A stretch of DNA of 64,000 nt from assembly GCF_009834535.1 (NCBI RefSeq), contig NC_045696.1:44270001-44334000 (forward strand). Direction: 5' to 3'. Below, in pieces: positions 7,113 through 61,191 of the stretch (positions within the stretch are counted from its first letter, which is position 1; each line of letters starts with the position of its first letter). The DNA is from Camelus ferus. Its lineage: Eukaryota. The notes beneath the pieces are model-generated. The model saw only the letters and a program-made list of their open reading frames with translations. It did no database searches and was not told where the DNA came from. Made by a program: the position numbers and the translations under genes.

Positions 7113-7518
7113 TTTTCTTGTTTTTGTTTTTGCTTTTTTAAATTGAAGTATAGTCAGTTTACAGTGTTGTGTCAATTTCTGGTGTACAGCATAATGTTTC
7201 AGTCATACATATACATATATGTATTTATTTTCATATTCTTTTTAACTATAGGCAATTACAAGATATTGAATATAGTTCCCTGTGCTATACAGTATGAACT
7301 TGTCATTTATTTGTTTTATATATATACTAGTTAGTGTCTGCAAATCCTAAATTCCCAATGTATTCCTCCCTATCCTCTCTGCCTCCTGTAACTGTAAGCT
7401 TGTTTTCTATATCTGTGAGTCTGATTCTGCTTTGAACATAAGTTCATTTATGTCTTTTCTTGATTCCACATATGAGTGATATATGATACTTTTCTTTCTC
7501 TTTCTGGCTTACTACACT
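7113..7518 (-). mobile_element. L1 3' UTR fragment (camelid/artiodactyl type)
   Basis: T-rich tail then aattgaagtatagtcag...tagttccctgtgctatacag...tctttctggcttac; reverse complement of the UTR seen at 33300-33690. Confidence 0.9.
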
Positions 7519-9720: not shown

Positions 9721-10195
9721 GTATATTCGTTTCATAGTTACTACCTCAAATACCACTCTCTTAAGAGTTTAAAATAATATAAAATTATTCTCCTAAGTTC
9801 TGGAGAACAGAAGCCTGAAATCGTACTACTGGACTCAAATCAACATGTTAAAGAGTCCAGCATTTCTCTTAGAGGCTATAAAGGAGAATCTATTTCCGTC
9901 CCTTTTCCAATGCCTGCTTGCTTTCTTTGGCTCCTGGCCCCTTCTTTTACTTCGAAGCCAAAATCATAGCATCCATCATCTCCTTCTCTGGCTGCCTCTA
10001 TTGCCTCCCTCTTATAAAGAGTCTTATGACTTCACTGGGTCAACCCCTTTAGTCCAAGATAATCTCCCCATCTCAAGATCATTAACTTAATCACACGTGC
10101 AATGGATATCTTTTTTATTATGTAATGCAACATATTTTTAGTCTCCAGGGATAAGAACATGGGTATTTTTTAGGGAACGTTTTCCTGCCTACCAC
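9721..10195 (-). mobile_element. MaLR LTR (MLT1D/E-like)
   Basis: gttctggag...gaagcctgaaatc, ggagaatc, gataatctccccatctcaagatc, ttaacttaatcac, ends tgcctaccac. Confidence 0.8.
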
Positions 10196-27994: not shown

Positions 27995-28627
27995 ATACTG
28001 TGTCGCACCCCTGCCACCCCCCAACCCCCTCCCCACCAAAAAAACTCCTCGTCCTAATTCCTGGAACCAATGAATATGTTATCTTACCTGATAAGAAAAA
28101 GGAGTGACCTTGCAGATGTGACTGAGATTACAGACTTTAAAATAGGGAGATTAGCTGAGATTATCCAAGTGGGCCCCCTCTATGACACGAGCACTTTTTT
28201 AAAAGCAGCAAAGTTTCTCCAGCTAGAGGCAGAGCAGACACAGCAGCAGAAGTCAGGAACCCTCACACCTGCTAACTCTGGAGGAAAACCCAGGCAGCTC
28301 CTTTGTGAACTGCTGATGGGGGCGGCCTCTAGAAGCTGACCGTGATCCTGAGTTGGCAGCCAGCAAGAAAACAGGGACCTTTAGCCCGACAACCACAAGG
28401 ATTGAATCCTACCAACAACCAACGGGCTTGAAAAAGGCCCCCAGGCCTCACAGGAGGATGGCAGCCCCAGCCAGCAGTTTGATTTCAGCCTGTGAGATGT
28501 GACCAGAGGAACCAACTAATTAACACCCAGACTCCTGACCCATGGAAACTGTGAGATAATAAATTTGTCTTGTTAAAAGTCACAAAATTTGTGGTAATTC
28601 GTTACAGCAGCAACAAAAACCGTATGA
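27995..28627 (+). mobile_element. MaLR LTR (MLT1E-like)
   Basis: gtcctaattcctggaacc, gagattatccaagtgggccc, gccagcaagaaaacagggacc, aactgtgagataataaat, ggtaattcgttacagcagcaa. Confidence 0.85.
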
Positions 28628-32834: not shown

Positions 32835-33733
32835 CTGGTTATCAGAGAAATATAAATCAAAATTATCATGAAGTGTCACCTCACACTAGTCAGAATGGCC
32901 ATCATTCAAAAGGCCACAAACAATAAATGCTGGAGAGGGTGTGGTGAAAAGGGAACCCTCCTATACTCCAGGTGGGAATGTAGTTTGGTGCAGCTGTTAT
33001 GGAAAACAGTCTGGAGATTCCTCAAAAGACTAAAAATAGACTTATCATATGATCCAGCAATCCCACTTCTGGGCATATAATCCAGAGCAAACCTTAACTC
33101 AAAAAGATATATGCATCCCAATGTTCGTAGCAGCATTATTTACAATAGCCAAGACATGGAAACAACCTAAATGTCCATCCACAGATGACTGGATAAAGAA
33201 GTTGTGGTACATTTATACAATGGAATACTACTCAGCCATAAAAAAGAATAAAATAACACCATTAGCAGTAACATGGATGGACCTAGAGATCATCATTCTA
33301 AGTGAAATAAGCCAGAAAGAGAAGGAAAACTACTGTATGATATCACTTATATGTGAAATCTAAAAAAAGAAAAAAGAGAACACTAATGAATTCATCTACA
33401 AAACAGAAACAGATTAGCAGACACAGTAAACACTCTTATGGTAACCAGGGGAAAAGGTGTGGGAAGGAATAAATTCGGGAGTTTGAGATTTGCAAATATT
33501 AGCCACTATGTAAAAAATAGATTAAAAAACAAATTTCTTCTGTATAGCACAGGGAACTATATTCAATATCTTGTAATAACTTTTAATGAAAAAGAATATG
33601 TAAAAGACTATATGTTATGTATATGCATGGCTGAAACATTGTGCTGTACACCAGAAACTGACACATTGTAACTGACTACATTTCAATTAAAAAAAATTTT
33701 TTTAAAAAGATAGCAAAAAAAAAAAAAAAAAAA
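32835..33733 (+). mobile_element. 5'-truncated L1 (ORF2 C-terminus, 3' UTR, poly(A))
   Basis: ORF track: [33 protein letters not shown]; long A tail; near-TSD aaaaggccacaggg (32795-32808) / aaaaagccataggg (33734-33747) at a TT/AAAA site. Confidence 0.95.
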
Positions 33734-48750: not shown

Positions 48751-49639
48751 ATTCAGAGGCCCCAAAGACATTGGATCATTGTCTCTAGAACCTGTGGATG
48801 TTACTTTATATGATAAAGTTTTTATGGGTGTGATTAAATTAAGAATTTTGAGTCATTTTTTAGATTTCACATGTAAGTGATATCATGATATTTGTCTTTC
48901 AAATGAACTTATTTATGAAACAGAAATAGACTCACAAACATAGAAAACAAATTTATGGTTACTAAAGGGGAAAGGGAGGAGGGATAAATTAGAAGTTTGG
49001 GATTAGCAGATACAAACTACTATATAAAAAATAGATAAACAACAAGGTCCTACTGTATAGCACGGGGAATTACATTCAATAACTGTATATGTATAACTAA
49101 ATCACAATGCTGTGCAACAGAAACTAACACAAAATTGTAAATCAACTATACTTTAATTTAAAAAAAACAATTACACTAGTGCTTTTCCTCAAAGCAATCC
49201 TTGTACTTTAATGTGCAGCCAAAGTGCCTCATTCATATTTTGCATTTCCCACATATAGGATAATAAAAAGACATTTACTAAAGGGTAAAAAAAAAAGAAT
49301 TTTGAATAAGAAGATTAATCTGGATTATCCAGGTTGGCCCTAAATCCTATCACAAGTGTCCTTAAAAAGAGATGCAGAGAGAAATCAGAGAGCAAAGCAA
49401 TCTGAAGAAGGAGGCAGAGATTGGACTGATGTAGTGACAGGCCAGTCAACAGAGCAGCATGTACCAGATTCTCCTTTATAGTCTCCAGAGGAAGTGTGGC
49501 TTGGCTGATACCTTGATTTTGACTCGCTGAAATTGTTTTTGGATTTCTAGACTCCAGATCTGTTAAAGAACACATTTCTTCTCTTTTATGCTACCCAGTT
49601 TGTAATTACCTGTTACAGCAGCCATAGGAAACTAAGACA
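48751..49639 (+). mobile_element. MLT1C/D-like LTR, split by L1
   Basis: ggccccaaaga...gtgtgattaaattaagaattttga resumes after the L1 with agattaatctggattatccaggttggccctaaat; ends gcagccataggaaactaagaca. Confidence 0.85.
48852..49294 (+). mobile_element. Short L1 with 5' inversion and 3' transduction
   Basis: TSD aagaattttga 48841-48851 / 49295-49305; inverted 48852-48899; sense UTR 48900-49167; non-L1 49168-49286 with AATAAA; second A tail. Confidence 0.92.
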
Positions 49640-53868: not shown

Positions 53869-55529
53869 CAAGGCAATCTACAGATTTAATGCAATCCCTA
53901 TCCAATTACCCAGGACATATTTCACAGAACTAGAAAAAATCAATAAAATTCATATGGAACCATCAAAGACCTAGAATTGCCAAAGCATTACTGAAGAGAA
54001 AGAAAGAGGCTGGAGGAATAACTCTCCCAGACTTCAGACAATACTATAGAGCTACAGTCATCAAGACAGCATGGTATTGGTACCAAAACAGACATATAGA
54101 CCAATGGAACAGAATAGTGAGCCCAGAAATGAACCCGCAAACTTTTGGTCAACTCATCTTTGACAAAGGAGGCAAGGATATACATTGGAATAAAGACAGT
54201 CTCTTCAGCAAATGGTATTGGGAAAACTGGACAGCAGCATGTAAAACAATGAAGCTAGAACACTCCCTTACACCATATACAAAAATCAACTCAAAATGGA
54301 TTAAAGACTTAAACATAAGGCAAGATACAATAAACCTCCTAGAGGAAAACATAGGCAAAACATTATCTGACATACATTTCAAAAATTTTCTCCTAGAAGA
54401 AATAAAAGCAAGAATAAACAAATGGGACCTAATGAAACTTACAAGCTTCTGCACAGCAAAGGAAACCAGAAATAAAACAAGAAGAAAACCTACGGAATGG
54501 GAGAAAATTTTTGCAAGTGAAACTGACAAAGGCTTGATCTCCAGAATACATAAGCAGCTCATACGACTCAATAAGAAAAAAATAAACAACCCAATCCAAA
54601 AATGGGCAGAAGACCTAAACAAGCAATTCTCCAAGGAAGACATACAAATGATCAAAAAGCACATGAAAAAATGCTCAATATCACTAATTATCAGAGAAAT
54701 GCAAATCAAAACTACAATGAGGTATCACCTCACACCAGTCAGAATGGCCGTCATTCAAAAATCCACAAATGACAAATGCTGGAGAGGCTGTGGAGAAAGG
54801 GGAACCCTCCTACACTGCTGGTGGGAATGCAGTCTGGTGCAGCCACTATGGAAAACAGTGTGGAGATTCCTCAAAAGACTAGGAATAGACTTACCATATG
54901 ACCCAGGAATCCCACTCCTGGGCTTGTATCCAGAAGGAAATCTACTTCAGGATGACACCTGCACCCCAATGTTCATAGCAGCACTATTTACAATAGCCAA
55001 AACATGGAAACAGCCTAAATGTCCATCAACAGGTGACTGGATAAAGAAGAGGTGGTATATTTATACAATGGAATACTACTCAGCTATAAAAACCGACAAC
55101 ATAATGCCATTTGCAGCAACATGGATGCTCCTGGAGAATGTCATTCTAAGTGAAGTAAGCCAGAAAGAGAAAGAAAAATACCATATGAGATCGCTCATAT
55201 GTGGAATCTAAAAAACAAAAACAAAAACAAACAAACAAAAACAAAGCGTAAATACAGGACAGAAATAGACTCACAGACAGAGAATACAGACTTGTGGTTA
55301 CCAGAGGGGTGGAGGGTGGGAAGGGATAGACTGGGATTTCAAAATTGTAGAATAGACTACACTGTATAACACAGGGAAATATACACAAAATGTTATGATA
55401 ACTCACAGAGAAAAAAATGTGACAATGAGTGTGTATAAGTCCATGAATAAGTTAAAAATTGTGCTGAACACTGGAATTTGACACAACATTGTAAAATGAT
55501 TATAAATCAATAAAAAATGTTAAAAAAAA
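53869..55529 (+). mobile_element. Young 5'-truncated L1 (camelid-type): ORF2 C-terminal part open 53943-55211, full 3' UTR
   Basis: 364-aa ORF extends upstream without stops to 53943; CCHC motif [18 protein letters not shown]; ends [15 protein letters not shown] and A tail. Confidence 0.97.
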
Positions 55530-57707
55530 GAAATGCTTTAATTAGCAAAGCTGAAAAAAAAAAGAAAATTGCAAGAGAATATATAAAGAAAAAGAAAATT
55601 GAAAGACACTGGACTTAGAGAGTTATTGTCACTACATCTAGTGAGAGAGTACAGCTGAGTTGGTAATTAAACAGCCACACTCCCGCTGACAGATCTGCAG
55701 CATCCCAAGAATATGACTAGATCTAGACTCACACGGAAAACCACCACTAAATAGGCTTACTTCAGACAGACTCAGTCTCTCCACCTAGAAAGTGCAAATT
55801 ATAAAATCTGGACTAAGAGGAGTCATGAAGCACCCAGTCTTAATCACACAGTATGCCCAGGATAGAAGCTAAAAGGATATCGTATATTTTAATGCATTCA
55901 CTCGTCAGATCACAAGCTGAGTCTTTACAGAAATTGATTGACACTATTAGGATATATGGCAGTATACTATAATGGGATGTACAGCATCTCATAATAATAA
56001 TGTTTGATGATGTCTTTTAATAATGTTCCAGTGGTATTTCTGGCTCAAGGAATGTCAATCAAGATCAATTCCCTCTGCCATTTCTAGAAAACAACTAAAA
56101 TTCAGAATGACCAATAATACCAAATAGTGCAAGAATAGTAATAGTACATATTGCTACTACTAGTAAAAGATTCGCTTCTTATAAGCTCACTGAATTCCAC
56201 ACAGTTCCCAAAAACAGAAATCATATTACTGCTATTAAAACCTAGATACACATAGTGATTATTTGTCCACAGAGCCCAATTTCCATTTATGGATGTTATT
56301 CTGCTCTGCATTATACTTTCATGGAAGTAGGGAAAAGTAAAATTCCCAATTTGGATGGAAACTTATGCTAAGGGACAGTATTTTACACTTAATCCAAGAT
56401 CAAACGAGATCAAAGAAAACTATTATTTGTGAAACGACAGCCCTAAAACAAATTTAAGTCCCTGGCCAATACCTTCCACTCCAAGTACATCCCCACCAAC
56501 TCCTTTTTGACTGAAAATTCCAGAAATTTTCCTACATAGTTTGCTGCCATTTTTTGTTCCTCCAAGACAACAGGTAGCTACAAGTTTATGGTCATAGTGG
56601 GAATTCACACTAGCCAAATTAATGCCAGAAGACGCAATGATATGTATCACTGCCTTAAGCCAATTGGTTGCTAACATAGTCTCTGAGCAATAATTTTGTT
56701 CCATGATTTTGAAGCACTATAGCAAATTCTCCTTGGGCCTCTGACAATGTGAAAAAGGACCACAAAAGACAAAATCAGGGCTATATTTTGTCCTATCACT
56801 TAAAATTCCTCCATATTGATCTCACTGTTTACCTGTCTTTCTAGTTAGGATCTTGTTGATTTTTTGCCTAAACCGTCTCTGAACAAATTTCTTCCTCAAA
56901 TGATGCATTCTCTACTAGCCTGAGTTTTGTCTACAGCCTTCCTCTGACCTATAATGCTATAAATCAGGACTCATATTCTATGTCTTGATCCCAAGGCCAC
57001 TTTGACAACAAGCTGTTGAAACTCCCCAGGACTGACCAAACCTTCTGCCTCTCCTACCTGGACTTTCATTGGCCTTTTGGTCTCAAACTTTAGCAATTTA
57101 CATTTTGCCAGTGATGCTTTGACATTAGCAAGCAGTCATCATCTTGACCCTTTCCTTCTCACCACTATCTCCTATAATAACATGTTAATATCATTTTCCT
57201 TATAGGGCAGCTTGAATTTGTTCAGGTGTTCCAATAAAGTACTTTCCTCAAATCATAATCTTGTCTTTGGCCTAATGAAGATAAACTCTCCATAGAGTGT
57301 ATTTTCTACAATGGGAATTCAGTGACATATTTAATACTCAGATATCTTACTTAGTTGGCATATTGACATTAATTAAAAAATCAAATTTTGGTGACTTTGA
57401 CACCACCACTCACTACTGCCTTTTGCTAAGCCCATTCACAAAGGGCATCATCCTTTGAATTTGCAATCTCTAGGTTAATGATGAGGATAAGAAAGACCAA
57501 CATGCTCTGCTTCATCTTCCCCACCCCCTTAAATTCAAGTATCTGCCAACTGTGTCTGAGGAAATCCAGAACAAACAAAGAAGTAAGGGGAAGACATTAG
57601 AGAGAGCAAATAAATGAGGATAAGATGGTGAAGAAAAGAGCTCTCAATTCATTTCAAGACTTCTATCATTATGGTAACCCCAGTTAACTCTGAAAAAGAG
57701 TATCTGT

Positions 57708-60854: not shown

Positions 60855-61191
60855 TTTCCCTCCGGTTTTTAAATTGAAGTATAGTTGATGTACTATATTG
60901 ATGTAATACAATGCTGTATTAGTTTCTGATGTACAGCATATTGACTCAGTTATACAAATATATATACATATTCCTTTTCATATTCTTTTTCATTACAGGT
61001 TACTACAAGCCATTGAATATAGTTCCCTGTGCTGTACAGTAGGACCTTGTTGTTTATCTCTTTTGTACATAGTGGTTTGTATCTGCCAGCCCCCAACTCC
61101 TAATTTATCCCTCCTTCCCCCGCCCACCCCCAGTAGTCATAAGTTTGTTTTCTATGTCTGTGAGTCTCTTTCTGTTTTGTAAATAAGTTTG
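60855..61191 (-). mobile_element. L1 3' UTR fragment (artiodactyl type)
   Basis: aattgaagtatagttgat...tagttccctgtgctgtacagtaggaccttg; near-TSD agacaatctttctt (60841-60854) / agataatctctctt (61192-61205). Confidence 0.9.

Follow-up and report, generated by a model that had tools for sequence, protein, structure and literature searches.

How did part of an L1 3' end come to lie inside an old LTR of Camelus ferus, with its first stretch turned around and with a segment foreign to L1 following its A-run? The stretch of DNA analysed here (the window; 64 kb of contig NC_045696.1, positions 44,270,001 to 44,334,000) is AT-rich, with 34.8% GC, and densely packed with L1 fragments; within it, a tRNA scan gave no tRNA gene, no Rfam family reached its gathering threshold, and a SINE probe found no match. 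An earlier note on this DNA read 48841..49305 as one L1 insertion bearing both a 5' inversion and a 3' transduction. Every one of the coordinates that it gave for the insert was reproduced when we re-read the sequence; the certainty that it attached to the origin of the non-L1 segment is a separate matter, to which we turn once the scar itself has been described.

The insertion scar and the interrupted LTR

The insert comprises 443 nt between the two copies of a target-site duplication (TSD): 48 nt of antisense L1, 260 nt of sense L1, an A8 run, 119 nt of non-L1 sequence (the tag) and a second A8 run. From left to right the features are:

48798..48851 (+), left part of the host LTR, 41/54 identical up to the TSD with an uninterrupted copy at 10133-10073 (-)
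48841..48851 (+), 5' TSD copy, 11 bp, opening at a TT/AAGA L1 endonuclease site
48852..48899 (-), inverted L1 piece (ORF2 end/start of the 3' UTR), 48 nt, with reverse-strand matches in four L1 paralogs
48900..49159 (+), sense L1 3' end, 260 nt, with a ~46-nt internal gap near 49083-49085 and no canonical polyA hexamer
49160..49167 (+), first A-run (A8), read as the remnant of the source element's tail
49168..49286 (+), non-L1 tag, a putative transduced 3' flank, 119 nt
49262..49267 (+), AATAAA polyadenylation signal within the tag, with 19 nt between it and the tail
49287..49294 (+), second A-run (A8), the tail read as the primer of first-strand synthesis
49295..49305 (+), 3' TSD copy, an exact match to the 5' copy
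49295..49588 (+), right part of the host LTR, 188/276 identical to 10079-9770 (-)

The perfect 11-bp TSD claimed before is present as AAGAATTTTGA, identical at the two positions and bounded by a mismatch on both sides. With the base frequencies of the window, such an 11-mer has a chance of 1.3e-6 at a single site, and among random boundary pairs (nominally 20,000) only 3 had at least 11 exact bases in common within +/-5 nt of their ends. Its length lies within the ~4-20 bp expected for an L1-mediated TPRT insertion. The TT/AAGA site likewise stands: it is the top-strand form of a cut strand reading TCTT/AA, which fits the endonuclease site YYYY/RR that serves as a criterion for L1-mediated TPRT, and TCTT/AA recurs among the human L1 insertions tabulated in PMC4859970 (Table 1). 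The second A-run abuts the 3' TSD, which itself opens with two further A's. An L1-mediated insertion is well supported.

The LTR into which the insert went, which we take to be of the MLT1/MaLR type, can be followed on both sides. When the flanks are aligned separately to the uninterrupted copy at 9770-10133 (-), the left one stops at 10073 (score 39; shuffled maximum 37) and the right one resumes at 10079 (score 62; shuffled maximum 40), with the duplicated bases common to both. Since the two flanks join at the TSD in a paralog that has no interruption, the insert came from outside. To the left, the host LTR probably extends further than 48798. Two more old LTR-like copies akin to it lie in the window, at 9770-10133 (-) and at about 28060-28180 (+); against the second of these, near 28100, the right flank scored 44 (shuffled 33) and the left flank 25 (shuffled 31), the latter not above the shuffled level. 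In the uninterrupted copy the TSD-equivalent is followed by one extra G, and 48852 is a G as well; hence, going by this one LTR paralog, the duplication may originally have measured 12 bp.

The inverted L1 piece and twin priming

The inversion at the 5' end, which the earlier note had also read from the sequence, is seen directly: 48852-48899 and 48900-49159 match adjacent L1 stretches in opposite orientations, and the two stretches are neighbours in four L1 copies of the window, near 7450, 8600, 33370 and 55200. Judged by the spacing in the paralog at 7450, 0-1 nt was lost at the breakpoint, in an A-rich region that varies in length among the paralogs. The inverted piece adjoins the 5' TSD with its downstream end, which is the geometry predicted by twin priming. 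Further, the TTTG at the end of the TSD (which finishes TTTGA) is complementary to CAAA at 48900-48903, that is, to the RNA just past the breakpoint, and a 4-bp pairing of this kind by a second primer has a chance of ~0.007 (calculated by hand from the base frequencies of the window). The C at 48900 fits both pieces, giving a 1-nt overlap at the joint. The complementarity (4 bp) and the microhomology (1 nt) are both short, and both were judged against paralogs of other subfamilies.

Twin priming is thus well supported, the junctions, the adjacent L1 pieces of opposite orientation and the TSD-abutting end of the inverted piece bearing out what had been proposed. The mechanism reportedly goes back to Ostertag and Kazazian in 2001. 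It is described in bioRxiv 10.1101/2024.08.27.596794, where, as at this locus, the inverted piece is shorter than the sense piece, internal priming uses short complementarity, and the joint shows microhomology with a small breakpoint deletion; within the range given there, an inverted piece of 48 nt and a loss of 0-1 nt fall at the small end.

The origin of the 119-nt tag

That an L1 A-run is followed by 119 nt of non-L1 sequence and then by a second A-tail holds as first described, and two A-runs flanking non-L1 sequence, all inside the TSD, constitute the layout of a partnered 3' transduction; A-runs with unique sequence between them are what PMC4859970 and PMC12350158 give as the layout of such events. 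The AATAAA in the tag, also claimed before, is the only AATAAA or ATTAAA in 48900-49305. Its 19 nt to the second tail lie inside the 10-30 nt range of partnered 3' transductions, a distance at which PMC13009371 reports the signal upstream of 274/349 human transduction ends, and an AATAAA-to-tail spacing of this kind is present at 563 of 18,270 sampled positions of the window (3.1%). The L1 part offers only TTTAAA at its end (49157) and no canonical polyA signal of its own, and this weak signal fits read-through; it is not peculiar to this copy, as two paralogs without a tag, at 7134 and 60866, have the same end, ATTTAAAAA.

Because the insert has the published two-A-run layout and its sole canonical hexamer sits in the tag at the right distance, we favour an origin in a single partnered 3' transduction, a read-through L1 transcript having been inserted by the L1 machinery and the event resolved through twin priming, and consider this account likely. 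The tag could then, as the earlier note inferred, point to the source L1 locus elsewhere in the genome. The priors lean the same way: ~25% of somatic L1 insertions carry transductions (PMC13009371), as do 466 of the 5,311 polymorphic L1s in 1,019 human genomes, 5' and 3' transductions taken together (PMC12350158). Outside humans the rate may be lower, since mappable transductions make up ~1.8% of dimorphic dog L1s under the strict filters of PMC13141329.

The earlier note had called this origin established. It is the likeliest reading of the layout; the layout alone is no proof, and the word is too strong because a retrocopy of a host transcript or an insertion nested in an A-tail leaves identical sequence, and because a human survey assigned an unambiguous source to only part of the transductions called by layout, namely 23/32 full-length and 42/78 truncated ones (PMC3024322). 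A published hallmark of transduction is that the tag begins with the source's own 3' TSD.

Briefly, the favoured account would run as follows. A source L1 with a weak 3' signal may have been transcribed through its own short A-tail, and the read-through RNA would have been polyadenylated 19 nt past the next AATAAA, 119 nt into the flank. The scar shows the next step: ORF2p cut the bottom strand at TCTT/AA inside the old LTR, and from the new tail cDNA was made across the tag, then the earlier A-run and then 260 nt of L1. The junctions show that a second end, on the top strand and at a distance of 11 bp, base-paired at an internal point of the same RNA; from there another 48 nt upstream were copied in the reverse orientation. 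On the twin-priming model, the two cDNAs would finally have been joined over the 1-nt overlap, with repair leaving the 11-bp duplication. The TPRT scar and the inversion are there in the letters; the read-through at the start of this sequence of events is what we infer.

Several identities for the tag were considered and set aside. The first was the host LTR, a finding that had been named as one that would overturn the transduction: the tag scores 23 and 27 against the two LTR-like copies (shuffled maxima 32 and 33), and the LTR flanks are continuous without it. A tag belonging to the consensus of the L1 subfamily had been named alongside it. Nor is the tag L1 sequence of the kind found in the window, where none of the seven other L1 3' ends, only one of them a near relative (85%), runs on into the tag. 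Five Rfam matches (E 0.66-4.9) all lie far below the gathering scores of their families, and stops in all six frames exclude an intact coding exon. Against the rest of the 64-kb window the best local score of the tag was 33, within the 31-42 of 20 shuffled tags, and an exact 22-nt pattern from it had 0 matches in metagenome contigs, where camelid host DNA need not occur. The L1 body (48959-48969) and the end of the tag (49275-49285) have 11 nt exactly in common, 14/15 when extended, probably by chance.

One observation absent from the earlier note bears on the template. The sense L1 part has an internal gap, sized at 39-47 nt against 5/7 paralogs, the other two aligning too poorly for sizing; its nearest paralog, at 61190 (-), is identical at 221/259 positions (K2P 0.166). 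This gap counts against transduction, in that the L1 part could already have been decayed when it was copied, which would favour a host transcript. The template might then have been a transcript of the host, mRNA or lncRNA, in which the terminal exon contained the 3' end of a 5'-truncated, decayed L1 and, downstream of it, a host AATAAA; the L1 proteins would have copied its last 0.44 kb in trans with twin priming, and the tag would mark the end of a host transcript, with no active source L1. Processed pseudogenes also have TSDs, tails and 5' inversions (PMC4859970), and the gap, compatible with prior decay, goes with 15% divergence from the nearest paralog and yet with a perfect TSD. Against this, we would expect host transcripts of that sort to serve as templates far less often than L1 read-through RNAs, the gap may be later than the insertion, an 11-bp TSD should stay perfect in ~15% of cases even if each copy has decayed by 8%, and the tag shows neither a splice junction nor a coding frame. 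We regard a retrocopy of this kind as rather unlikely.

Shares of sequence words in sequencing runs touch on the same question. For 48900-49296, 14 of the 24 runs listed contain 0.65-0.84 of 43 words; these 14 span seven coded organism labels and nine studies, which suggests that the sequence is common to several organisms rather than private, in a query that held the insert without its flanks, so that a near-identical donor could also explain the shares. The highest share, 0.84, belongs to the run X1, which is small and of unspecified type; were it an RNA run, which would favour the retrocopy, the donor or the locus would presumably be expressed. The six runs recorded as RNA contain 0.05-0.09 of the words, which speaks weakly against a retrocopied host transcript, and four added runs contain 0.02-0.30.

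The A8 runs on both sides of the tag raise the further thought that two events were superimposed: a solo twin-primed L1, into whose A-tail the end of a short polyadenylated RNA (an orphan transduction or a truncated retrocopy) was later inserted, with a duplication consisting of A's only. The bases 49157-49167, TTT followed by A8, are themselves an L1 endonuclease site, and according to PMC13174262 a comparison of species alone separates sequential from contemporaneous insertions. Such a history would need a second rare event in one small target; orphan transductions are also much the scarcer class (48 versus 878 partnered ones in PMC12350158), and no second TSD of mixed sequence is seen, the outer TSD not being repeated behind the first A-run. 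All told, two superimposed events seem very unlikely to us.

The first A-run could also have guided a jump between templates, with reverse transcription beginning at the tail of a host mRNA and moving after 119 nt to the A-tail of an L1 RNA, or the two RNAs having been ligated beforehand. Chimeras of L1 with other RNAs are known; however, those described in PMC13174262 have the foreign RNA 5' and the L1 3', the reverse of the order found here, and a switch would be needed together with twin priming within one event. We attach a very low probability to such a chimera.

A variant of the favoured read-through account would go further and see the gap-marked L1 3' end plus the tag as a self-propagating unit, a camelid source lineage leaving many siblings, in which the captured downstream AATAAA would have taken over from the weak polyA signal of L1. 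This is a long shot; if true, the genome would contain a small subfamily whose 3' end is new and comes from the flank, and which could be dated by comparing camelid species.

Age, counterparts and meaning for camelid L1s

If the insert and its nearest paralog descend from one common master, their divergence would imply ~8% decay per copy. A slower mammalian rate would then put the age of the insertion at up to ~40 million years. With 2.5e-8 per five-year generation (PMC8605555) and again one master, it would be ~17 million years. Such an estimate is an upper bound if the two L1 subfamilies differ. The insertion is probably tens of millions of years old, and its perfect TSD is no sign of a younger date, given how often (by a hand calculation) one is expected to survive such decay. 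It is a dead, promoterless, non-coding relic without sign of function.

Other L1 pieces of the window show features of their own. The nearest relative, at 60866-61189 (-), carries 16 additional nt close to its 3' end, a segment in which a short motif is repeated. At 53869-55530 (+) there is the 3' portion of a relatively young L1, with a piece of ORF2 that is open over 425 codons; among the 120 listed of 605 protein matches, the best is an L1-derived stretch of a Camelus bactrianus protein (a gene model), at 88% identity, and the others are at most 72% identical. The L1 ending at 33690-33730 (+) has an interrupted tail, made up of an A-run, a T-run, a few mixed bases and a long A-run; a tail that expanded anew, or a very short transduction, may lie behind this.

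The combination of inversion with transduction is ordinary, long described and common in mammalian L1 insertions. The first L1 3' transduction to be reported, in DMD, was a 5'-truncated, inverted element with 489 bp transduced (PMC4859970 Table 1). That LRE2-derived insertion (Holmes et al. 1994, per PMC4859970) resembles ours in its 5' truncation, inversion, transduced flank, tail and TSD; it differs in being human, de novo, 1.4 kb long, disease-causing and of known source (PMC4859970), whereas the present one is camelid, old, 443 nt long, situated in an LTR relic and has a putative source only.

Closer in dimensions are the partnered transductions of human colorectal cancers, ~30% of which carry a 5' inversion (PMC13009371): they have a median length of 445 bp, against 443 nt here; their breakpoints cluster ~250 bp from the L1 3' end, against 260 nt here, or ~306 counting the gap; and, as here, short tags end 10-30 nt past the signal. 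Those insertions are somatic, near-identical to mapped sources and long-tailed (PMC13009371), whereas ours is germline and decayed, with its tails shrunk to A8. The LINE-1 3' transductions of dogs share with it a germline origin in a non-primate mammal (PMC13141329). As reported there, they were traced by unique tags, most of their sources being 'parentless', and they are young, dimorphic and mapped at >=95% identity; the camelid insertion, in contrast, appears old and common to several labelled organisms.

In point of numbers, 1,047 5' inversions were called in the 1,019 human genomes (PMC12350158), and with ~350,000-400,000 L1 fragments per camelid genome (PMC8605555) many inserts like this one are to be expected. 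We found no traced camelid L1 transduction in the open-access literature, and a camelid repeat survey mentions transduction once, in passing (PMC8605555).

A single copy matters little in itself, and an undescribed instance of a common process will not surprise the specialist; its layout makes it a tidy teaching example. On the reading that we hold likely, it would mean that read-through transduction and twin priming were also at work in an old camelid L1 lineage. Should the donor be found, the tag would tie this ancient insertion to its source and provide a presence/absence marker for camelid phylogeny.
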